DNA of 64,000 nucleotides from Escherichia coli (GTDB taxonomy: Bacteria > Pseudomonadota > Gammaproteobacteria > Enterobacterales > Enterobacteriaceae), in assembly GCF_030013205.1 (NCBI RefSeq), contig NZ_CP122648.1. One strand, 5' to 3'. The position numbers and the translations under genes are program-made. The notes beneath the pieces are model-generated. The model was not told where the DNA came from. It did no database searches and saw only the letters and a program-made list of their open reading frames with translations. Below are positions 139-38,377 of this stretch, piece after piece (the first letter of the stretch is position 1; the number at the start of each line of letters is the position of its first letter).

Positions 139-3100
139 TTAGTCATTTTGTTGACAGAAAACAGCTATCTCCTGGTCCAGCTCTGCAATGTGTTCTTTAA
201 CAGAGTTCAGCAACTTAAGAATTTCAGGCTTGCTGTCATCTGAAACGGGCGTTATTTCTAACTGATGGCTAAGATTAATCAACTTTTGCAAATTCAGGAT
301 GTTAGCCGCACCGTGGATGCGATGAATACACTGATGGAAAGTTCTGTTATCGCCAGCTTCTAACGCATGAAACGCAGCGGGTAGATCTTTATGCGTTTCA
401 TGCTGGAAAGTCATGAGAATCTCCTGCATCAGTTGTAGATCGTTCGCCGTATTATTTTTCAGGGCCTCGATATCAAGGTGGCGATACTGAGGTGCAATAG
501 GCGCAACCTGGTGTAACTGACTTAAATGTGTTTTCATTACATCCAGGGTCAACGGTTTGAACAAACATAAGTTCATGCCGCAATTTAACCCTTTTTCACG
601 TTCGTTAGCCTGTGCGTTGGCTGTAAGCCCCCAGATGGGTAAGGAAGAATTTTGCTCACGGAGTTTCCGAGTCAACTCAAAACCATCCATATTCGGCATA
701 TTAACGTCAGTAATAAGCAGATCATAATGTTGCATACTGACTTTGTGTAGCGCTTGCACACCATCAGTGGCTTCATCAACATCATATCCTAATAGGTTTA
801 GCTGGCGTTTGAGTAATAGCCTGTTGGTCGGATGATCATCCGCGATTAATATGCTCAACTTTTCAGGGAGTGTCATGGGTTGTTCTGCTTTTGCCTCGAC
901 AGTCGCCACTTGTTGGGTAATTTCTACCGGGATTGTGATCGTAAATGTCGTTCCTATGCCTGGATGACTTTCTAATGACAAATCGCCCTGCATGTTTTTA
1001 ATTAATTCTTTGCAGATTATTAAGCCTAAACCAGAACCTGTTTGCTGACGACCTGCACTTGTTTGGCTATAACGTTTAAACAGTTGTTGTTGTTCTTCCT
1101 GTGATAATCCACTTCCAGAATCCATAATCGTCATTTTGATTACAGCGTGGTTGTCATCAATGTTAACCAGGGAGGTCGTAATTTTTACTGCACCCTCGGT
1201 GGTAAATTTGAGAGCATTGCTCAGTAAATTAGATAAGACCTGCTTAAACGCCTGAGGGTCGATCTTAACCAGGTAATGTTCAGGAAACGTACTGCTGCAA
1301 CTTAATGCGATCGATTTGCTTGCAGCAATCGCACCGAAAGAGTGACAAGTGTTCTGGACTAAAGTAGGGATGTCGACCCATTGTGGTTGAAGTTGATAGT
1401 TACCCGACTCAATTTTGTCGACATCAAGGATTTCACCAATTAAGCCGAGGAGTGATTGTCCGGTGGCGTAGGCAAGTGAAATCGCCTCCACCCGTTGCTC
1501 CTTGCTAAGACCAGAACCCGACAGAAGTTCCAGGAAGCCCATAATGGAGCTTATTGGTGTTCTTATTTCGTGACTCATTGTTGCCAGAAACTGACTTTTT
1601 GCGACAGTTGCATTGATCGCTTTATTTCTCTCTACTTCGAGAGCGTGAATTAAATCACGCGTCTCGGTAATATCTTGCCAACCACAAATATAAACAGCAT
1701 GATCGCTGGCTGGCAGATTGCATAATGTATGCCAGTGATTAATGCATCTTTTCTCGATGCCATTATCAATTTCAAATACCTGTGTGTATATTGTTCGATT
1801 TTCTTTCGTTTCTGCTGTGACTTCATGCGCATTAGAAAAAACATCTTTAAAGGGTGAGTCACTGTTTTCTAATGGTAACATTGCATTTTTGTAGTAATCC
1901 GCAGTGAAATAATGTTCAAAAGCACTATTATGACTAATGACATTACCTTGCCAGTTTACAACATAAGTTGGATTCGGTAAGGAATCCGAGAGTGCTTTTC
2001 GGAATGATATTTGGTTTTCTAAATCACCCTGAATGACTTTACGACGACGAACTGAGCGTAACAGGTAGAATCCCCATAAAAGGCTACTGCCAACTAATAA
2101 AACGGATAATGTCGTGACAATATAAAATTGCTCGCTATAGAGGTCCCATGTGTCAATGGTCACATTGGGCATTTTAATCCATTTTTCCGTCAGGCGCAGA
2201 ACTTCGCTTGGGGGAATTGCATTCAGTGCTTTATTAATAATATCCTTAAGTTCCGGTTCTCCGCGAGGAAAAGCGAACGAAAGCGATGCATTCGGAACGC
2301 CGGGAATAAGAAAATGATAAAGTTCATTAGGATAGTAATGGTCGATCATGTAACGTGAATTTAACTGTGTCGCGACCAGAGCATCAAGTTCGCCTTCTTT
2401 AACCTTGTGAAATGCAGCGCTTGCGTTATCGACTTTTATCCACTCTACCTCCGGATACATCTCTTTTAATTGCGAATGAAGCTCATAATAATAGGGAATG
2501 GCAACTTTCATTCCTTTTTTTAATGTTTGTTCACTGTCAGGCGCTTTTTGCATGACAAAAACGTAAGGCGTTGTTATGAAGGCTTCAGCAAATAAAACAT
2601 TATTTTCTCTATCTTCACTATAAATAGCGGCGGGCAATATATCCCATCCACCGGGGTTAAGCTGTGTCCCCGCATGAATATTGTGTGAAACGGTGATCGG
2701 AGAAAAATTTAAACCTGTTTGCAAGGTAATAATATTAAGAATATCACCCATCACGCCCCGAACTGAGCCAGTTTCATCTGTCATAGAATAGGGTGGCGAG
2801 TAAGGATTTTCCAGCACCTTTAAATCGGGATGCTGCTTAATCCACTGTTTTTCATGTTCAGTGAGTTCTAATGGTTTGTTCAGAAAGGCCAGGTTTCCTG
2901 TATCAAGCCAATTTTGTGATACTTCATAGCGAACTTCATTTGTTAAAGCATCAACAAATCGATTGAGTACTTCATTAAGAACGACTGAATCTTTTCTGGT
3001 TAAGAAAAAGTTATATTGACGCGGCGAGTTATAATATTTCACTACATTTAAGGAGTGAGTGAAATAGCGGGAAATCATACTGCTGGTAATAATGTTACTA

Positions 3101-3732
3101 CCAATAAAGTAATCATTCTGTCCGGCTGAGACGGATGCTAATGCCTGATATAAATTTGTAAAAGAGATAATTGTTGCTTTTGGAAATGATTGATGAATTA
3201 CCTCATCTGGAGGGTAATTTGCTACCCGAGCAATATTTACTGGTTTTGATGAGGTAAGCGGTCTCATTGAATCGTGAAGGGTGGTGACCAGCGCCGGAAA
3301 GGTAATTATCAGCGGTTTGGTTGCAGCAATGTCATCATTAAGAGGCGGCGAAGCAACTAAATGTGATAACACTATATCGACTTCCCCTTCTGTAAGCGCG
3401 TCCATTGCTTTTTGATGATCTGCGTATTCCCGGAGTGTTAATTTGATATTTAACGCTCTTTTTAAAAGATTTAAATAATCAGCATTAATACCACGAACCC
3501 GTTGCTGCGAATCGGTATGCAACAAAGTAGCCGTTTGGGACTTGTGTACTGCAATCACAAGATTTTTTTTGCTCGCTAACCAACGTAATTCCTTGTTGCT
3601 CAGACGTAGTGGATCAAGCGTGACACGGTTGTTACTACTGATGCCACGATATTCGATGTAATCTTCGTCTGCGAAACTTATGGTCGACCAAAGACCACAA
3701 CAGAGAAGAATAATATAGGGTAAAAACTTCAT
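139..3732 (-). CDS. evgS: Hybrid sensor histidine kinase EvgS (two periplasmic solute-binding domains, HisKA/HATPase, receiver, HPt)
   Basis: 1197-aa ORF with HEIRTP H-box, receiver domain and C-terminal HPt; immediately downstream of evgA on the same strand. Confidence 0.95.
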   Translation of the reverse strand: MKFLPYIILLCCGLWSTISFADEDYIEYRGISSNNRVTLDPLRLSNKELRWLASKKNLVIAVHKSQTATLLHTDSQQRVRGINADYLNLLKRALNIKLTLREYADHQKAMDALTEGEVDIVLSHLVASPPLNDDIAATKPLIITFPALVTTLHDSMRPLTSSKPVNIARVANYPPDEVIHQSFPKATIISFTNLYQALASVSAGQNDYFIGSNIITSSMISRYFTHSLNVVKYYNSPRQYNFFLTRKDSVVLNEVLNRFVDALTNEVRYEVSQNWLDTGNLAFLNKPLELTEHEKQWIKQHPDLKVLENPYSPPYSMTDETGSVRGVMGDILNIITLQTGLNFSPITVSHNIHAGTQLNPGGWDILPAAIYSEDRENNVLFAEAFITTPYVFVMQKAPDSEQTLKKGMKVAIPYYYELHSQLKEMYPEVEWIKVDNASAAFHKVKEGELDALVATQLNSRYMIDHYYPNELYHFLIPGVPNASLSFAFPRGEPELKDIINKALNAIPPSEVLRLTEKWIKMPNVTIDTWDLYSEQFYIVTTLSVLLVGSSLLWGFYLLRSVRRRKVIQGDLENQISFRKALSDSLPNPTYVVNWQGNVISHNSAFEHYFTADYYKNAMLPLENSDSPFKDVFSNAHEVTAETKENRTIYTQVFEIDNGIEKRCINHWHTLCNLPASDHAVYICGWQDITETRDLIHALEVERNKAINATVAKSQFLATMSHEIRTPISSIMGFLELLSGSGLSKEQRVEAISLAYATGQSLLGLIGEILDVDKIESGNYQLQPQWVDIPTLVQNTCHSFGAIAASKSIALSCSSTFPEHYLVKIDPQAFKQVLSNLLSNALKFTTEGAVKITTSLVNIDDNHAVIKMTIMDSGSGLSQEEQQQLFKRYSQTSAGRQQTGSGLGLIICKELIKNMQGDLSLESHPGIGTTFTITIPVEITQQVATVEAKAEQPMTLPEKLSILIADDHPTNRLLLKRQLNLLGYDVDEATDGVQALHKVSMQHYDLLITDVNMPNMDGFELTRKLREQNSSLPIWGLTANAQANEREKGLNCGMNLCLFKPLTLDVMKTHLSQLHQVAPIAPQYRHLDIEALKNNTANDLQLMQEILMTFQHETHKDLPAAFHALEAGDNRTFHQCIHRIHGAANILNLQKLINLSHQLEITPVSDDSKPEILKLLNSVKEHIAELDQEIAVFCQQND

Positions 3733-7575: not shown

Positions 7576-8904
7576 TTAGCGGCCTTTTGCCAGATATTGC
7601 TCCATCTCTTCTTCCGGCACCATTCCACCTCCCGTCGCCCACACCAGATGAGTGGCATTACGCAGTTGTTCTGCGCTGAAACCGTGCATCTGTTGGTAAC
7701 TTACTGATGCGCACACGCGCTGAGGCCCGGCCATACCCGCCAGTGCCGAAGGTTCAAGACGAATGCCTTCTTCCTGCGCCAGCCAGCCAAGCATGTCATA
7801 CATGGTTTGATCGCTAAGGGTATAGAAGCCATCCAGTAGACGCTCCATTGCCCGCCCGACAAAGCCTGATGCGCGACTAACTGCAAGGCCATCCGCTGCG
7901 GTAAGGTTGTCGATACCAATATCCTGAACAGAAATCTGATCGTGTAATCCAGTATGGACGCCTAACAACATACAAGGGGAGTGCGTTGGTTCGGCAAAAA
8001 AGCAGTGAACATGATCGCCAAACGCCAGTTTAAGTCCGAATGCGACGCCACCAGGACCACCGCCAACACCACACGGCAGATAGACAAACAGAGGGTTATC
8101 AGCATCGACGATACGACCTTGCTCGGCAAATTGCGCTTTAAGACGCTGGCCTGCGACGGAGTACCCAAGGAACAACGTGCGGGAATTCTCGTCATCAATA
8201 AAGAAACAGTTCGGGTCAGACTGCGCTGCTTTACGTCCTTCCTCGACGGCAACACCATAATCTTGCTCATATTCCACGACCGTAACGCCATGGCTGCGCA
8301 GTTTCGCTTTTTTCCACGCCCGGGCATCAGCAGACATATGCACTGTCACCTTAAAGCCAATGCGGGCGCTCATAATGCCGATTGATAACCCCAGATTTCC
8401 GGTTGAGCCCACAGCAATGCTGTATTGACTAAAGAACTGTTTAAACTCCGGAGACAGTAGTTTGCTGTAGTCATCTTCAGGCGTCAGCAACCCCGCTTCC
8501 AGAGCCAGTTTTTCTGCGTGTGCCAGGACTTCATAAATCCCGCCGCGTGCTTTTATGGAGCCGGAAATGGGTAAATGGCTATCTTTTTTCAGTAGCAGTT
8601 GCCCGCTGATCGGTTGTTGATATTCCTTTTCCAGCCGTTTTTGCATAGCCGGAATGGCAACCAGTTCTGATTCAATAATCCCCCCAGTGGCAGCAGTTTC
8701 AGGAAATGCTTTTGCCAGATAGGGTGCAAAACGAGATAAGCGCGCATGGGCGTCCTGAACATCCTGTTCGGTCAGGCCAACATAAGGTAAACCTTCAGCC
8801 AATGAGGTCGTGCCAGGATTAAACCAGGTGGTTTCTTGAAGAGCAACCAGATCCTTTACCAACGGATACTGGGCGATGAGCGAATTCATTTTAGCGTTTT
8901 CCAT
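7576..8904 (-). CDS. dsdA: D-serine dehydratase (PLP-dependent)
   Basis: 442-aa [34 protein letters not shown]... matching DsdA. Confidence 0.95.
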
Positions 8905-28841: not shown

Positions 28842-30113
28842 CTATTCTTTCCAGTCAATCCCATCCAGTAAGCACCCTGCCTCATATTGCCCCACCACCC
28901 AGTCAAGGTTACAGGACTCATAGAACGCGAGGCGATTATACTGAGGCTCGTTTTTTACCAGGCCACGAACGGAACCACGCTGCCAGTACAGACACAGATT
29001 GGCAAGAGGTGTGATCAATACAGCATTGTCCGGGAAAAATGGAACGGTCACAGCCGGGAGATTCCCCAGAACGGGATTTTTAATGATTTCCTCGTTAAGC
29101 AAAATTTCCTGATTCATCTGCGATGGATCAAGACGGTTTATCAAAGGCCATTGTTTACGGACCAGCGTATTGTGACTGCATACGGCCACAATGCCTTCCT
29201 GCCACTGTTCATCAATCATGGATTGCCAGGCATCCAGAACGAGCGCATCTATCGTATGGTGTGTACCGCGTATATTACTTTTCGGTGATGAGACAGAAAG
29301 GCCGCTGATAACCCTTCCCGCCGCTTCATTTCGAAACTTCTGCAACCAGCCCACGCCGCAATCGTCACGCCCCGGATATGTTCCGGGATCTGATACATCG
29401 GCATAGTGCGTACCGTTAAAACCAATCTGAATCAAATCCAGCCATTTCTGGCGTTCAAAAGCAGCCCGGGCGCTTCCTTCAAGACCGTTTGCGGATGCGT
29501 GAGCATCAACATTGTCGTAGTTCAGCGCAAAATCAAAATTAACCTGCTCGCAGCGGTAGCCCCTTGAAACCAGTGAATGCGCCTGTAGTGGCGAGCGGCG
29601 CTCGTGAGGTGGCGATGTACGTGCTAACGGCCCCGAAGCGTCTACCAGCACAACCTGACCTGATATATCCGTAACAGGCACGGGAGTTATTTCAGCAAGG
29701 AAATTTGCCTGCCATCCACTGGCAAGCGTTGCACTCTGGCGGGGGACGGGTTCAACTTCTGACGAATAGCGCGCAGTGTCACCGGAAAAGTGCAAATCCT
29801 TCGGATGCTTTCCGGTTATCGACTCGATAGCGCAATTGAAAACCATCTGAGACTGTTGATTTCGTTGTGATACAACAGAATCAGCAGTGCAATTATAACG
29901 CTCAATGCCGTCGTTATTACCCCCACCGCTTGCAGTATGCAGGGTGTGAAGCTCAAGCTCACGCTCCAGTTTTTGATATTCATTGTCCAGCGCGCGACGC
30001 GTCTCATCGCTTATGCTTGCTGTGTTTGCTTTCAGGCGATTCCGGGACATTAATCCCCTGAGTCGGCTCACTATATCAGCGCCGTGCAAATGTGGAGTAT
30101 TCAGACCGCCCAT
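28842..30113 (-). CDS. P2 gpN-family major capsid protein homologue with divergent N-terminal region
   Basis: Start taken at internal ATG 30113 (TAATG overlap with the upstream gene stop). C-terminal two-thirds align by eye with P2 gpN (...YRCEQVNFDF..., ...GWLQKFRNEAAGRV..., ...GNLPAVTVPFFPDNAVLITPLANL..., ...YESCNLDWVVGQYEAGCL...). Confidence 0.7.
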   Translation of the reverse strand: MGGLNTPHLHGADIVSRLRGLMSRNRLKANTASISDETRRALDNEYQKLERELELHTLHTASGGGNNDGIERYNCTADSVVSQRNQQSQMVFNCAIESITGKHPKDLHFSGDTARYSSEVEPVPRQSATLASGWQANFLAEITPVPVTDISGQVVLVDASGPLARTSPPHERRSPLQAHSLVSRGYRCEQVNFDFALNYDNVDAHASANGLEGSARAAFERQKWLDLIQIGFNGTHYADVSDPGTYPGRDDCGVGWLQKFRNEAAGRVISGLSVSSPKSNIRGTHHTIDALVLDAWQSMIDEQWQEGIVAVCSHNTLVRKQWPLINRLDPSQMNQEILLNEEIIKNPVLGNLPAVTVPFFPDNAVLITPLANLCLYWQRGSVRGLVKNEPQYNRLAFYESCNLDWVVGQYEAGCLLDGIDWKE

Positions 30114-32628: not shown

Positions 32629-33630
32629 TTACTCTACTGGCTCTTTTTGTTCAGTGAATGCCATGTTAGCTATCGGGTTAAACCTCATGGCATCCGCCAG
32701 ATAGTCGGGGGAAAAATGCGCATAAGTCATCGTTTGCTGGATAGTCGCATGTCCAAGAATCCGTTGTAATGTAACGATATTCCCACCGTTAATCATAAAG
32801 TGTGTGGCAAATGTATGACGCATGACATGCGTAGCCTGCCCCTTCGGTAAATCCGGCTTCACCTCCTGAAGGATCTCCCGGAACTTCAGATAATCAACCT
32901 GATACAACAACCCCGTCCGGCGGGTCTTAATCAGCGGCACGACCGAATCAGCCACAGGAACCGAACGGGATTTTCCGTTTTTGGTGTTAAAGAACGTCAC
33001 CCGGTTGCCAATGATGTGCTCTCCACGTAGTTCCGATGCTTCACTCCATCGGGCACCAGTAGAAAGACACAGAATGGCAACACGACGCGCATCACCCTCC
33101 AGTCGCTCAAGAAGCCGCTCAATCTCATCATCAGAAAGAAAGGCCATCTCTGTATTCTGAATTTTTAGCTTGCGTATACCGCGTACAGGGTTCGGGTTGT
33201 GAAAGACCTCAGCTTCAATCAGCACCGTGAACATGGTAGACAGAACGCACAAGTCACGATTAATGCTGGATGGCATTAAGCCGGCCTGTAATTTCTCTGA
33301 CCGATACTCAAGCATAAATTTTTGCGTCATCTGGCTGGCACGCGGATCTCCCATTTCACGAATCACTTTCTCCATCCGGATCCTGTAGGTATCACCGTAA
33401 GCCTGGTTACGGCCATCAAGCATCCACCATATATCAAGCAGCTCTGATAATCTCCGTCGATCAGCAGGTTTAGCCAGCCATGGGTTGTTATGGAAATTCT
33501 GTAAAATATGTTCTTTGAAGGCCTCCGCACTCCCTTTCCTGACAAAAATTTTACGTATCCGTTTGCCGTACGCCCCTTGGGGCCTGATATCGAGCAGCCA
33601 TCGCCCATCATCCATCTTTCTGATCGACAT
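32629..33630 (-). CDS. P2-type tyrosine integrase
   Basis: 333-aa ORF MSIRKMDDGRWLLDIRPQGAYGKRIRKIF...LSELLDIWW...INRDLCVLSTMFTVLIEAE...ILCLSTGARWSEA...GQATHVMRHTFATHFMINGGNIVTLQRILGHATIQQTMTYAHF matches P2 Int in length and motifs. Confidence 0.8.
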   Translation of the reverse strand: MSIRKMDDGRWLLDIRPQGAYGKRIRKIFVRKGSAEAFKEHILQNFHNNPWLAKPADRRRLSELLDIWWMLDGRNQAYGDTYRIRMEKVIREMGDPRASQMTQKFMLEYRSEKLQAGLMPSSINRDLCVLSTMFTVLIEAEVFHNPNPVRGIRKLKIQNTEMAFLSDDEIERLLERLEGDARRVAILCLSTGARWSEASELRGEHIIGNRVTFFNTKNGKSRSVPVADSVVPLIKTRRTGLLYQVDYLKFREILQEVKPDLPKGQATHVMRHTFATHFMINGGNIVTLQRILGHATIQQTMTYAHFSPDYLADAMRFNPIANMAFTEQKEPVE

Positions 33631-33632
33631 AC

Positions 33633-36302
33633 TTAAGCCCCCTCCTTGTTACTAAATATCCAGCATTTCAATACCTCCTTCTCTCTGGCCTCGGCTATTC
33701 CCCTCCCGGCGTTCGCCTGTCTGGATACCTCGCTACGGACGGGCTTGTATCCAATCAGCGATCGAGAACGGCCAGCCTTGAGAAGCTTTATCATTTCGGG
33801 ATTGGTTTGGGTCTTCACGTGGTGAACGGCGGCAACCTGCTCAAGTTGCGGGATACTGACGGCAAACTCATTCTGCCGTCCCTTGCCAAAATGATTTACG
33901 CCGTATGCTGTGATGCCGTCCAGATAGTCGAACGCCTCCCAGAACGCCATCACTTCCGGCAAGTCATCCATTACCGCTTTAGCCTGCTCCTCTGCCATTC
34001 GCTCCAGTTCCAGACATGTGGCATCAAGCCATTCATCCGGGATATCAATAACGCATTTCAGCGCCCTGACCAGTGCAATTAGTTGCGCGTGATTTTTGGC
34101 AATACGCTGATGGCGAATATTCTCGCAACCGTAAAGGCGGGTTGTTTCAGAATCCGAGAGTGCCATAAACAGATCCATAATCGCCCGCTCCTGGCTTACT
34201 GCCCGATGGATAAAACCTGATACCTGCTCAACGGGGTAAAGCTCCAGCCGTTTTGCTGCCAGTCGGCTATCTGGTGAGTGGCGTTTTTTATCGGTGTATA
34301 TACGTACCAGACGCTCGATAATTGCCGATGAGGCGTTTACCGTGGCATTCTGCGCAATCACGACAGCCCCTTTAAAAACGGGGTCATATGTGGCGTTATC
34401 ATTAGTTTTAACACCACGTACCCCAATACCACCGCCGTTATAGAGGCTTTTCAGGTTATCAAAGTCAAACGCACCTCTTTTTTGCGCATTGTCCCCCCGG
34501 TCTGCTTCAATCAGAACAACAGGTAATCCGGCGACCTGTCCAAAAGTTCGCTTCCAGCCTGATTCCGATCCTTTGGTTGGATCAACACCTTCATAGTTGT
34601 CACGGCCACACAAACGCCAACAAAAATCAATCAGCGTTGTTTTACCCGTTCCAGGCTCTCCGGTAATCTCAAGAAAAGGGTAAGACGTGTTTTTCTGCCT
34701 GATTTGTTCGCTGAACAACGAACCCAGCCAGAAGGCCAGGGTAATAATTCCCTTTTCACCAAAAGCCAGCCAGAGATCTTCCACCCAGGATATTGTGAAT
34801 TTATCCGGTTTTTTATAGTTAATCTGCAATATTGGTTTTTTATTCAATGGTTTTGCGTTTATGCCATCAATTTCAAAATAATCCTCTTCATTGATTTCGT
34901 AGGTTTTACCATTACAAACCGCGACATCATTAAACAGCCACGCGCCAATCTCTTTGTTGTATCCGATAAAATCCTGACCGATAACATTTTTTATTGCGGG
35001 AAGGTCATTTTTTATTAATGCATCAAGGTGCGCAGTCGTTCCGGTATAAATACCGCCTTTTGCCACATGCAACAGGCGTTTTTTAAATTCAGATGCGGAT
35101 GTTAATTGTCCTGATGTAAAGGTGTTTTTCACCGTCGCACCATCCGGGAACGTAACACGGAAGTAATACCATGCTTCATCCGTGTCATTGTTTCGAATGT
35201 AATAAAGCGGCGCCGGGTTACAGTTTGCGATTTCTTTTACAGCGCCGGATTCCTTAAGTGCAATTTTGCGCGCTTCATCTTCGTCAACATTTCGCTCATT
35301 TATGACGCGTTCAACAGCCTTCATATGGCGCTCAATATCCAGTTTGAACCAGAAAACACGGTTATCAAAAGTAAAATGAAATTCCTTTCGCTCACGAAAG
35401 GAAAACATTATCAGCGCCTTATCTCTCGGAGATTTTGCCAGCAATAAATCACCGTAATAACGGTATCTTTTCACATCATGGCCACGCAGCTTTCCGGCGA
35501 TGTGTAAATCATTCCAGTCGCGTTTATTGCTGTTTTTTCCTGGTAACGCCGCTGCCGTTCTCCAGCCGTCTTCGGCGCTGCGTTCTGCATGTTTTTTCGC
35601 ATAACGCTCACCCGCACGCCCGTTATCCAGCGCCCACACGATAACCGGACGGGGATTATCCCCGCACAGCTTCGCCAGCTCTTCCAGCGCCTTATCAGGG
35701 TAGTTTACGGCAGACATGACAGAAACGGCCGCAATGCCATTCTGGTTAAGGCTGATGGCATCAAAGATACCCTCACAAATCCAGATTTCTTTGGCCTTGC
35801 TTAAATCATCTCCCGGATAAGCCCACCACAACCCCTTGTAGCTGCCGGAAAAATTCGCCTTGCGCGCGAAGCGTTCCGGTCGGTCTATGATGCGCTCCCA
35901 CCACACGCCGTCAGCCAGTGTAAAACGCACAGTAGCGGCCTGTTCGCCGCTTTCCTTGTCCTGGTATCGCTCCTGAGTAAATGCTCCCTTCAGTGGCTCC
36001 ACAGCAATATTGCGTGCTTCCAGAAGATAAGCTGTCGCCGCTGCGTATGGATTGTCTTTCGTGCTGATATAGCGATCTGACCATGATGAAAACACATCCG
36101 GGTAAAGTTCTTTGGTCAACAGGTCTGTACCGCATTTATTTTCGCGCCCACAGTGCACGATGTACGGCCTTTCAAGGCTGGTAAAGAGCTCCTTCTTTCC
36201 ACATTGCGGACAAACACCATACCGGAGGTAGTTATTTTCTTCTTTGAAGTTGTAATCACGGATAAGACGGTTAATAATCTCTTTTCTGGTGTTATGTTTC
36301 AT
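33633..36302 (-). CDS. Primase-helicase replication protein (Cys4 zinc finger + TOPRIM primase + P4/D5-type NTPase)
   Basis: 889-aa ORF with CPQCGKK...HCGRENKCG, TOPRIM-like WICEGIFDAISL and ALDNGRAGERYA, Walker A GEPGTGKT and Walker B VVLIEAD. Confidence 0.75.
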   Translation of the reverse strand: MKHNTRKEIINRLIRDYNFKEENNYLRYGVCPQCGKKELFTSLERPYIVHCGRENKCGTDLLTKELYPDVFSSWSDRYISTKDNPYAAATAYLLEARNIAVEPLKGAFTQERYQDKESGEQAATVRFTLADGVWWERIIDRPERFARKANFSGSYKGLWWAYPGDDLSKAKEIWICEGIFDAISLNQNGIAAVSVMSAVNYPDKALEELAKLCGDNPRPVIVWALDNGRAGERYAKKHAERSAEDGWRTAAALPGKNSNKRDWNDLHIAGKLRGHDVKRYRYYGDLLLAKSPRDKALIMFSFRERKEFHFTFDNRVFWFKLDIERHMKAVERVINERNVDEDEARKIALKESGAVKEIANCNPAPLYYIRNNDTDEAWYYFRVTFPDGATVKNTFTSGQLTSASEFKKRLLHVAKGGIYTGTTAHLDALIKNDLPAIKNVIGQDFIGYNKEIGAWLFNDVAVCNGKTYEINEEDYFEIDGINAKPLNKKPILQINYKKPDKFTISWVEDLWLAFGEKGIITLAFWLGSLFSEQIRQKNTSYPFLEITGEPGTGKTTLIDFCWRLCGRDNYEGVDPTKGSESGWKRTFGQVAGLPVVLIEADRGDNAQKRGAFDFDNLKSLYNGGGIGVRGVKTNDNATYDPVFKGAVVIAQNATVNASSAIIERLVRIYTDKKRHSPDSRLAAKRLELYPVEQVSGFIHRAVSQERAIMDLFMALSDSETTRLYGCENIRHQRIAKNHAQLIALVRALKCVIDIPDEWLDATCLELERMAEEQAKAVMDDLPEVMAFWEAFDYLDGITAYGVNHFGKGRQNEFAVSIPQLEQVAAVHHVKTQTNPEMIKLLKAGRSRSLIGYKPVRSEVSRQANAGRGIAEAREKEVLKCWIFSNKEGA

Positions 36303-36314
36303 ATATAAATCCCC

Positions 36315-36344
36315 CCCACTGCACCTTTTGCAGTGGGTTTTTTA
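36315..36344. terminator. Hairpin plus T-run between the primase gene start and the upstream small ORF
   Basis: CCCACTGCA-CCTTTT-TGCAGTGGG followed by TTTTTTA; reads as a canonical terminator on the + strand. Confidence 0.4.
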
Positions 36345-36348
36345 TTAA

Positions 36349-36648
36349 TTACTCGTTGCTTATTGCTTTGGCAATCCCGGCGGTTTCGGCGCTATGCCAT
36401 GAAAAAATTCCGCCGGATGAATGCATACCAGATTTTATTGATTGTAATTCCCTATAAATAATGTTAGACAGAGATGCAATTTCTTCATTTATAATTTCTG
36501 CTGATGCTCCGCCATTTTTATCGTCAAAAACCACAGATATTAAACTGACGAGATTAATCACATCTGTGAGATCTTCCTTTGCACTTTCTGTAAAAAAGCC
36601 AACATATTCTCTATCTAAAAAATTTTCGCTATTCTGACGTTTAGACAT
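36349..36648 (-). CDS. Hypothetical protein (AT-rich, island-specific)
   Basis: 99-aa ORF, first of a run of small co-oriented genes upstream of the primase gene; no family recognised. Confidence 0.4.
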   Translation of the reverse strand: MSKRQNSENFLDREYVGFFTESAKEDLTDVINLVSLISVVFDDKNGGASAEIINEEIASLSNIIYRELQSIKSGMHSSGGIFSWHSAETAGIAKAISNE

Positions 36649-36715
36649 AAAAACTCCCCGACCCGTTAAGGCCGAAATATAAATTTAATTCAGTTATCAG
36701 TTGGTAATTCGGGAA

Positions 36716-36934
36716 TCAGGCGGAAAGCTGCGTCACCTTCAACGCCCTGAAATGTGTCATTCCCAGCTCTTCCAGCCCTTCGGCTGCGCGGCGTATGGCT
36801 TCGCCCGGTCCCGTTCCGTATACCGTTGCATGTGCATGTTTGGTTAACCCACGTTTATTAACGGCATAACCCAACACAAAGAAACGTTTTTCACCACTGC
36901 CATTATTTTTACGGGATGTTGAACGGGTTTTCAT
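36716..36934 (-). CDS. Hypothetical small protein
   Basis: 72-aa ORF; start overlaps the stop of the upstream gene (4-nt overlap). Confidence 0.35.
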   Translation of the reverse strand: MKTRSTSRKNNGSGEKRFFVLGYAVNKRGLTKHAHATVYGTGPGEAIRRAAEGLEELGMTHFRALKVTQLSA

Positions 36935-37119
36935 TTCTTCACCTTTACCACTGATGCTGTGAGTTCTTCTTCTGGCAACTGATATTTCGGCGCAATTTCT
37001 TCCGTATACCTGATAGCGTCCCTTGCCGCTTTTCCTTTTGATTTATATTTATATGTGGTCCGGTAGTTTTCTTCCTCTCCTGTTACCACATTACGCAATT
37101 TAATATGAATCTCGTACAT
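36931..37119 (-). CDS. Hypothetical small protein
   Basis: Start taken at MYEIHIKLRNVVTGEEENYRTTYKYKSKGKAARDAIRYTEE...; the track ORF extends 10 codons further upstream. Confidence 0.35.
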   Translation of the reverse strand: MYEIHIKLRNVVTGEEENYRTTYKYKSKGKAARDAIRYTEEIAPKYQLPEEELTASVVKVKK

Positions 37120-37121
37120 CG

Positions 37122-37304
37122 TTACCCCTCCATGATTTTTACTGCGCATTTGTGGGTTAATCGCCCCTGTTCATTCGTGCGGCTGTACTCCATGCGGCTG
37201 GCAGCACGCAGGGCATCATCACAGGTCTGATATTCCCTGACATGAAAAAACTGACGAACGTCGCCGCTCTGGCAGTTAATCAGGGTGATAAGGAGCTTAA
37301 ACAT
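37122..37304 (-). CDS. Hypothetical small protein
   Basis: Start taken at MFKLLITLINCQSGDVRQFFHVREYQTCDDALRAASRMEY...; the longer track ORF overlaps the upstream gene. Confidence 0.3.
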   Translation of the reverse strand: MFKLLITLINCQSGDVRQFFHVREYQTCDDALRAASRMEYSRTNEQGRLTHKCAVKIMEG

Positions 37305-37824
37305 TGCACGCCTCCCGGATACGAATACGGGCAACAGAGACCAGACGGGATGCCGGAAGCAGGGCGCGCGCTTCGCGCTCACTGGCGGCGGTAACGGTAT
37401 GAAGGCGGATATTTTTACCGTGGCACTGCATAAAGCGCCAGATAAAATCAGGGCGTGTTGATATAGCCATTTTGGCGGCTCCTTTGTCTAATTTACGGAG
37501 TCTCGCCAGCACGCTGCTAAACATGGTGGCGGGACGTAACAGGGTTAGCAGACTGGTGACAAAGAAACCAGCAGGCCTTACGGCCTCCCCATTACGCCCC
37601 GCCATAATACGGGAAAGGGTGGTATTACGGGCACAAAAAAACCGCATTACGGAAATATAGCGGCTACCCGCTTTGTCAATCAGGCTGCTAAACCCGGCAC
37701 CCGCTTTATGAGGTGCGGGCAAACGATACGCCATGACAAAAAAGCGAGTCAAGCAATATTGCAAATTATTTTTGCGTGATTGCGCTGAGTAATTGATTTT
37801 TAAGAGTAAAAAAGCCATAATCAT
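37297..37824 (-). CDS. Hypothetical protein (basic, Arg/Ala-rich)
   Basis: 175-aa ORF, first gene downstream of alpA; true start may be the internal MAYRLPAPHKAG... Confidence 0.35.
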   Translation of the reverse strand: MIMAFLLLKINYSAQSRKNNLQYCLTRFFVMAYRLPAPHKAGAGFSSLIDKAGSRYISVMRFFCARNTTLSRIMAGRNGEAVRPAGFFVTSLLTLLRPATMFSSVLARLRKLDKGAAKMAISTRPDFIWRFMQCHGKNIRLHTVTAASEREARALLPASRLVSVARIRIREACNV

Positions 37825-37885
37825 TTCTGCCTATTATTTCTTATTGTTGGTTTCAGGTGCACTAAATGCACATCCTTGACTGGTT

Positions 37886-37917
37886 GGCTCGCTAGCTTTA
37901 GCGAGCTTCTTTTTTGC
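37886..37917 (+). terminator. Plus-strand intrinsic terminator-like hairpin with no annotated plus-strand gene upstream
   Basis: GCTCGCTA-GCTT-TAGCGAGC followed by TTCTTTTTTG; a second hairpin GGTGCACTAAATGCACATCC lies about 20 nt upstream. Confidence 0.4.
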
Positions 37918-38377
37918 TCTGCAGCCAGTACCCGGCCTCCTTCCCTCACATGTAGTCATGTGCTCATTCCAGTCAGGTGGATAATGCTGTATTACCGGAC
38001 ATCCGGTTATGATGTTTAAAGCGTTTGTTTGTTTATGCCACGTGGAGAATATACCCACGCCGCCATTACTTGTATTTATCATAACAGTTCATCCAATTCG
38101 GTTAATGTAACCGGAATAACTCAATTTCATACACTGTAAATAAATGCTGATTTTAAACTTAGCTCCTTGGAATATATTTCTTACGTGTGACGTACAGGTG
38201 AAAATATCCCTCTGATAGTCCATTTTCTTTTATTGGGTCACATCTTTTTACTCCGGTTCCCTTAACAAGGGTAGAGCATCTTTTAAACCATGAATGCATC
38301 TTTGGTTAAGTGATGTTTCTTATTGAATGAAATGTTTAGGCGCATATCGCGCCATGCTGACTATAAAGTGAAAATAA

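Follow-up and report, generated by a model that had tools for sequence, protein, structure and literature searches.

P4-type immunity is a textbook case of RNA-mediated premature termination, and its least explored aspect is how the translation of eta permits escape from it. Another group of small regulators comprises plasmid countertranscripts and phage cis-antisense RNAs, such as CopA of R1, RNA I of ColE1, the ctRNAs, OOP of lambda and sar of P22, which are 60-100 nt long, contain hairpins and end in an intrinsic terminator; their promoter lies within or beside the target, a replication or regulatory gene, and they are complementary to the region where its translation is initiated. In P4, the CI RNA, the counterpart of the P1-P7 C4 RNA (RF01695), acts together with the seqA/isrK leader (RF01394) in a system that controls icd/kil and the replication operon, the IsrK-like element corresponding to P4 seqA and C4 to P4 CI (PMC3632133; PMC4825925). 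It was reported that transcripts started at the promoter within eta undergo CI- and seqA-dependent termination (PMC10111431, citing Forti et al. 1999), that full-length eta is translated only from the upstream late promoter, coupled to the alpA homologue, and that termination is prevented by eta translation (PMC10111431). In the P4 sequence, the corresponding long ORF, 8168-8812(-), begins upstream of PLE (8728-8699), where it overlaps the 3' end of vis, spans seqA and CI and finishes with a 65-aa terminal peptide, which is the length reported for kil.

The DNA analysed here, referred to as the window, is a stretch of 64,000 nucleotides from Escherichia coli, in which a P4-like satellite is integrated at tRNA-Arg(CCT) (40640-40714), beside yfdC. 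Its features are collected in Table 1, where units 1 and 2 designate two sets of plus-strand promoter-like and terminator-like sequences lying at the starts of the eta-like ORF and of the primase gene, respectively. Besides the integrase at the tRNA end, the satellite contains a second recombinase-like ORF, 32632-33630(-), where the RefSeq annotation is limited to a 'phage integrase', shorter than this ORF, and an ogr/Delta-like zinc-finger fragment. Additionally, it carries a P2-family major capsid gene of its own, which is unusual for P4-type elements, in which the capsid protein is usually borrowed from the helper. This gene is found downstream of the primase in the window and directly upstream of eta in the relatives designated class B below (L007:3168-4220).

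Table 1. Features of the satellite around the two plus-strand units (positions in the window)
Feature	Position	Strand	Details
P2-family major capsid gene	28845-30113	minus	PF05125, E = 5e-73
Second tyrosine-recombinase-like ORF	32632-33630	minus	Int_N and Phage_integrase domains; directly downstream of primase
P4 alpha-type primase gene	33633-36302	minus	889 aa
Unit 2 promoter-like site	36250-36278	plus	TTGTAA, 17-nt spacer, AATAAT; 9/12; inside primase codons 9-18
Unit 2 hairpin and T6	36315-36343	plus	13 nt upstream of primase start codon
Four small ORFs		minus	between eta-like ORF and primase
Kil/icd-like terminal peptide	37297-37470	minus	57 aa (MAISTRPDFIWRF...); start ATG 37470
Eta-like ORF	37297-37824	minus	175 codons; PGAP "host cell division inhibitor Icd-like protein"
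C4 / P4 CI-type immunity RNA	37522-37609	minus	RF01695, 79.7 bits vs gathering score 45
isrK / seqA-like leader with own terminator	37635-37716	minus	RF01394, 52.1 bits vs gathering score 50
PLE-like immunity promoter	37752-37723	minus	TTGACT, 18-nt spacer, TATCGT
Unit 1 sigma-70-like promoter	37793-37821	plus	-35 TTGATT 37793-37798, 17-nt spacer, -10 CATAAT 37816-37821; score 9/12
Untranslated spacer between alpA and eta-like ORF	37825-38377		553 bp
Unit 1 predicted RNA	37828-37917	plus	~90 nt; U-rich 5' part, hairpin 1, linker CAUCCUUGACUGGUUGG, terminator
Hairpin 1	37857-37871	plus	GTGCA-CTAAA-TGCAC
Unit 1 intrinsic-terminator-like hairpin and TCTTTTTT	37886-37915	plus	9 bp, loop GCTT
AlpA/Vis-like gene alpA	38378-38599	minus	PF05930, E = 5.5e-17; upstream neighbour of the gap
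Integrase	39199-40503	minus	

The window contains a complete P4-type immunity system, located on the minus strand at 37522-37716. The predicted start of the PLE-like promoter, at about 37716, is the first base of the isrK match, and when P4 itself was scanned the same pair of isrK and C4 matches was obtained; another Rfam family, c4-a1b1, overlaps the isrK leader with 29 bits. The C4 RNA is complementary to the leader site UGACAAAG (pairing CUUUGUCA/UGACAAAG), and it is also complementary to UUAGCAG (pairing CUGCUAA/UUAGCAG) and to GACAAAG, two sites at the Shine-Dalgarno of the 57-aa icd/kil-like ORF, whose start is at 37470. Between this immunity promoter and the plus-strand promoter of unit 1, which are arranged back-to-back with their -35 boxes 40 bp apart, there is a perfect 10-bp palindrome (GCAATATTGC, 37753-37762) that abuts the immunity promoter -35 and may be an operator; in L039 and L045, both metagenome variants, it is broken to GAAAAATTGC.

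The immunity module lies inside the 175-codon ORF, which starts upstream of the immunity promoter, spans isrK and C4 and has a kil/icd-like peptide at its end, as the long ORF of P4 does with respect to PLE, seqA, CI and kil, so that in its layout it matches P4 eta. Only the last 57 codons of the annotated 175-aa Icd-like CDS resemble icd/kil, and by eye this peptide has in common with the 65-aa end of the P4 long ORF the motif F.F...ER.AR...AR. In 24 of the 25 unique variants, the reading frame stays open for exactly 175 codons, and substitutions in its section ahead of the promoter fall about equally on the three codon positions (8, 8 and 7). Therefore, what appears to be conserved is openness and not the protein sequence, in keeping with selection for translation as such. 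The ORF cannot begin further upstream, because an in-frame UAG is located at 37831-37833, just before its start, and its Shine-Dalgarno is a weak AGG (37830-32), replaced by AGC in L013 and L038.

A departure from P4 concerns the sequence upstream of eta. In P4, the start of the ORF (8812) overlaps vis (end at 8764), to which eta is coupled, and no plus-strand terminator lies between them, whereas in the window translational coupling of eta to alpA is absent, the alpA stop being at 38378 and the eta start at 37824, and the two are separated by a 553-bp spacer that contains the candidate antisense unit. The initial annotation had described this spacer as a gap of roughly 550 bp with no credible ORF, a description that holds: an 82-aa ORF, 37834-38082(-), was considered and rejected, since it has no Pfam match and is frameshifted in relatives by T-run changes of +2 and +3. 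Just 3' of the unit 1 terminator there is a block of about 45 bp (37918-37962, CTCTGCAGCCAGTACCCGGCCTCCTTCCCTCACATGTAG...), kept in relatives with either alpA or an HTH gene upstream, in which the flanks past the block differ; a cos site was considered for it and discarded, as the P4 cos region has no similarity to it. The rest of the spacer (37963-38377) is nearly invariant across four alpA-type variants. It also holds a minus-strand, extended -10 promoter-like site (38105-38078; TTAACC, 16-nt spacer, TG-TATGAT), which could be a PLL-like start for transcripts running into eta.

The initial annotation had pointed to a canonical stem-loop with a T-run at 37886-37917 and to an upstream hairpin, both on the strand opposite to the surrounding genes, and the terminator scan and the gene map agree with it, every neighbour being on the minus strand. 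On the plus strand, the scan recovered the unit 1 stem GGCTCGCTAGCTTTAGCGAGCT (37886-37907, 9 pairs) followed by TCTTTTTTGC, and the unit 2 stem CCCACTGCACCTTTTGCAGTGGG (36315-36337, 9 pairs) followed by TTTTTTATTA, which are the two strongest of the 11 terminator-like sites in 35500-39500, a number to be compared with 4.3 +/- 1.8 in shuffles. Both have the sequence of intrinsic (Rho-independent) terminators, with 9-bp stems, loops of 4 and 5 nt, T6 in the tail and hairpin energies of -14.1 (unit 1) and -16.1 kcal/mol (unit 2), and in both the T-run follows the hairpin on the plus strand only; the second hairpin had initially been assigned to 36315-36344 with a run of T7, of which the hairpin and the run were borne out, the run being T6. 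The upstream hairpin of unit 1 (GGTGCACTAAATGCACATCC, 37856-37875) has a 5-bp stem (37857-37861/37867-37871) and an energy of -5.6 kcal/mol. Each terminator is preceded on the same strand, 30-95 nt upstream, by a promoter-like site scoring 9/12 against the sigma-70-like consensus, and such matches are about as numerous in the region (9) as in shuffles (7.9). Since the fold of the whole 92 nt barely beats shuffles (z = -1.8, a marginal gain only), the signal of unit 1 is its terminator architecture and not global fold stability.

What the initial annotation overlooked is that the hairpins of unit 1 abut the start of the eta-like ORF, which gives an antisense RNA a concrete target. The -10 box of unit 1 overlaps two ATG codons of this minus-strand ORF (37824 and 37818), so that an RNA starting at about 37828, the site inferred from the -10 box, would be antisense to the eta leader and Shine-Dalgarno, to which the predicted RNA is complementary, leaving the AUG uncovered. 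Given the start sites inferred in this way, both predicted units overlap a translation-initiation region on the opposite strand. The favoured reading, held with a little less than even confidence, is that unit 1 makes a short cis-antisense RNA from its own promoter, directed against the 5' leader and Shine-Dalgarno of eta, and that this RNA would block eta translation. The analysis establishes the sequence features, their conservation, their geometry with respect to the ORFs and the existence of a covariation-supported antisense RNA of the same geometry in related satellites, described below; the production of the RNA, its start point and its target are predictions. Other identities were tried and rejected: a small peptide, MHILDWLAR, from the ATG at 37867 is not conserved, being missing in L003 and in class B; a P2 Ogr/delta-type late promoter upstream of the plus-strand promoter lacks, by eye, the TGT-N12-ACA dyad; and the matches of unit 1 to suhB/mmgR (20.8 bits) and to the Trp leader (19.2 bits), like those of unit 2 to the Rfam families Ref84, Qrr and Hrs13, are far below the gathering scores and reflect terminator shape alone.

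The small plus-strand transcript had originally been called functionally plausible on the grounds that P4-type satellites use a small RNA as their immunity factor. In fact, unit 1 is, like the CI/C4 RNA and the seqA/isrK leader, small, structured and sited in the immunity region, but these two elements are found elsewhere, on the minus strand and above the gathering thresholds. C4 is processed from an operon leader and is thus expected on the strand of that operon, whereas unit 1 lies on the strand opposite to the isrK-C4-icd-primase operon, about 230 nt upstream of C4, and has a predicted promoter and terminator of its own. Additionally, no Rfam family was matched at 37840-37917, neither isrK nor, even at E <= 10, C4, and in a contiguous-helix test of unit 1 against the immunity transcript the best helices had 7 Watson-Crick pairs, or 11 with G.U, which shuffles equalled in 49% and 32% of cases, respectively, so that complementarity of the seqA/seqC type is not above chance. 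As unit 1 has neither an Rfam match nor complementarity to the immunity transcript above chance, it is not the immunity RNA, and the proposal that it serves as the P4-type immunity sRNA of the satellite is left with a very small probability. The antisense transcript itself remains a reasonable proposal, supported by the promoter-like sites upstream, by the conservation of unit 1 and by its invariant hexamers, and only the immunity rationale was wrong. A chance origin of unit 1 is also unlikely.

Conservation in relatives, on which the initial annotation had made its proposal depend, was observed for unit 1. The promoter region is present in 65 of 5426 complete E. coli genomes and is followed by a terminated plus-strand unit in all 65. 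In 56 of them the unit is of the window type (class A, 84-100% identity), constantly placed behind alpA or behind a 106-aa HTH gene, and in the other 9 (class B) the same promoter leads into another body, some 75 nt long, and another plus-strand terminator (GGCCCG...CGGGCC and a T-run), directly after a capsid gene. The promoter hexamers are invariant in 7 variants, in which 9 of the 17 spacer positions vary (Fisher p = 0.003, for positions that are non-independent, classes A and B being largely one replacement event, and with some loci fetched by a pattern that fixes the hexamers). Within class A, the T-run has 6 to 9 residues and 11 nt are deleted in L003, which indicates that unit 1 is non-coding. 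Hairpin 1 is kept in 11 of 12 variants, being missing in L003, the linker CATCCTTGACTGGTTGG is likewise invariant in 11 of 12, and the terminator stem is invariant in all 12 except for its closing pair, the changes of which favour either strand. The unit appears to be confined to Escherichia, because a promoter-pattern scan of species-representative genomes returned only one Escherichia sp. and one chance match, and the same scan of metagenomes added only near-identical copies of classes A and B; it is absent from P4 and from phage records.

The replaceable body of the RNA, which differs between classes A and B and lacks hairpin 1 in L003, agrees with a simpler interpretation, according to which unit 1 is only an insulator. 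In this case, the plus-strand promoter would be a by-product or partner of the immunity promoter, the terminator would stop transcription from this promoter, and any antisense transcription, before it meets the convergent upstream operon, and the RNA would have no regulatory role. The terminator does lie directly before the 3' end of a minus-strand gene in all three contexts (alpA, the 106-aa HTH gene and capsid), and no trans target was found in the 64-kb window or in the immunity transcript. However, insulation does not explain why the -10 box coincides exactly with the start codons of eta, why the class A linker is so constant and why PICI-like satellites have a two-hairpin RNA of the same geometry with covariation in its 5' stem; it is therefore judged unlikely, though by no means far-fetched. 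A similar weighing applies to an Hfq-type sRNA acting in trans on host or helper-phage mRNAs outside the satellite. The predicted RNA would have the appropriate parts, since it would be transcribed from a promoter of its own, begin with a U-rich stretch lacking structure, contain the invariant linker and end at a Rho-independent terminator with six or more U's, and island-encoded sRNAs are known in pathogenic E. coli, e.g., Esr41 (PMC5286369). However, the 64-kb window contains no more complementary 10-mers than expected by chance (13 versus 13.0 +/- 5.6 in shuffles), and a common trans seed is unlikely when classes A and B share so little sequence, which makes this explanation rather improbable.

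Folding and covariance analysis, suggested in the initial annotation as a check, gave a divided answer for unit 1, since the terminator stem is stable but the gain of the whole fold over shuffles is small and compensatory changes in class A are none. Covariation is uninformative for class A because the family is too shallow. As regards the strand on which the structure is used, G.U changes valid on the plus strand only occur in L002, L006 (a U.G pair in hairpin 1) and L009, and one change in L004 favours the minus strand.

A deeper family is provided by PICI-like satellites (L029-L032 and 72 unique IMG/VR sequences), in which a plus-strand RNA element some 90 nt long faces the beginning of the first leftward (Icd-like/eta-like) ORF, as in L029:2924-3040(+). 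An alignment of 72 unique sequences (A3, loci L029-L166) was used to build a covariance model (R1). The promoter of this element has an extended -10 box TGGTATGAT or TATAAT within the first codons of the leftward ORF, and the RNA spans the AUG, the Shine-Dalgarno and the 5' leader; its 5' stem-loop pairs the anti-Shine-Dalgarno segment with CGUUGGUGGUUAG and is followed by a terminator hairpin and a T-rich tail. In the alignment, 98.9% of cells are paired, with 9 compensatory pairs, and 0 of 500 shuffles reach any observed measure, while slid controls have 35-57% of cells paired; the covariation extends to the 5' stem besides the terminator. The fold is more stable on the plus strand in 54 of 56 unique hairpins, and the next 9 nt contain on average 4.5 T on the plus strand versus 1.0 on the minus strand, so that the T-tail exists on the plus strand only. 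The RNA is matched in 1585 of 5426 complete E. coli genomes (about 29%), and it has no Rfam family and no ncRNA annotation; an isrJ match (12.2 bits vs gathering score 37) was treated as chance. In L029, three TGTCAGCCAC repeats (3030-3135) separate the leftward operon from a divergent 59-aa gene of the YlcI/YnfO family and look like an operator array for a small repressor, and the window family has no YlcI/YnfO-family gene at the equivalent position.

Unit 1 (37816-37917) shows the same arrangement, with a -10 box in the first codons of the ORF, the leader covered and a terminator with a T-rich tail about 90 nt downstream, on the strand opposite to isrK/C4 where these are present. Although C4 is absent nearby for most PICI-type members, in L085, L084 and L061 isrK and C4 are encoded on the strand opposite to the RNA and 100-200 nt away from it, and the ORF that the RNA faces in L085 was confirmed to enclose isrK and C4 and to have an icd-like end, an arrangement as in the window. 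The PICI-type RNA differs from unit 1 in its two-hairpin structure and strong covariation, and sequence homology between them is not demonstrable. Model R1 found no match to unit 1, either with default filters or, on 37700-38000, with filters off, and it barely detects class B (L018: 5.9 bits, E = 0.086 in 300 nt); for this reason, the comparison suggests a common working geometry and not membership of one family. A homology of class A, class B and the PICI-type RNA was hinted at by the UUGUUGG/UUGCUGA polymorphism and by a UGGUURG motif before the terminator, but the covariance model gave no confirmation.

At the primase start, unit 2 has a comparable layout, and its predicted RNA of about 60 nt, 36285-36343(+), would span the primase AUG (36300-02) and Shine-Dalgarno. 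It fits the pattern of plasmid countertranscripts especially well, with no sequence relationship to them. That the promoter-like site is invariant in 18 variants is uninformative, the site being part of a coding sequence, and the hairpin is as stable on the minus strand (-16.8 kcal/mol) as on the plus strand (-16.1 kcal/mol); for these two reasons, unit 2 is a weaker case than unit 1. In L035, L036 and L044, a non-homologous hairpin (CCCCCTGTA-AAAA-TACAGGGGG and a T-rich tail) takes the place of the unit 2 hairpin, which argues that a structure is needed at this position. In distant primase relatives with 43-47% identity (L026-L028), comparable plus-strand units were not found.

The stability of the unit 2 hairpin on the minus strand, and its replacement by another hairpin right before the Shine-Dalgarno, would also be understandable if the hairpins of both units acted on that strand, where they stand in the eta leader and in the intercistronic leader of the primase, just 5' of the Shine-Dalgarno. 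They would then be leader structures affecting stability, processing or translation, or sites at the DNA level, and the plus-strand T-runs would be incidental. Against this, the T-runs are confined to the plus strand in class A, in class B, in both unit 2 types and in the PICI-type family, and the G.U pairs valid only on the plus strand, seen in L002, L006 and L009, are abundant in the PICI-type family; action on the minus strand is accordingly given little credence.

Under the favoured cis-antisense reading, and following the precedent of P4, eta would be translated only on transcripts from upstream of the constitutive immunity promoter, and its translation would allow such transcripts to escape CI-RNA-dependent termination and to reach the replication genes. 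Because the eta of the window is uncoupled from alpA and stands behind a 553-nt untranslated spacer, the antisense RNA and its convergent promoter would keep read-through from int/alpA, or from the capsid operon in the sister elements, from translating eta, and in the lysogen these read-through transcripts would remain under C4 immunity. Strong late transcription, on the other hand, would out-titrate the antisense RNA. Unit 2 (36250-36343) may repeat this design at the primase start, as a countertranscript acting on primase translation. A broader generalization, possible but doubtful, is that satellites of the C4/CI or Icd type generally carry a second, undescribed antisense riboregulator, transcribed from a promoter within the first codons of the first leftward ORF (eta- or icd-like) and guarding the immunity bypass, of which the unit of the window and class B would be independent replacements, with a similar lock at the primase.

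If the favoured reading is true, an antisense RNA on the eta start would constitute a second RNA layer in P4-type immunity, one that decides whether read-through from the integrase/alpA or capsid operon switches on satellite replication, which would be relevant to the silence of the satellite and to its induction by the helper. In addition, the "Icd-like" CDS annotated in thousands of genomes hides RNA genes, namely isrK and C4, along with the candidate antisense units.
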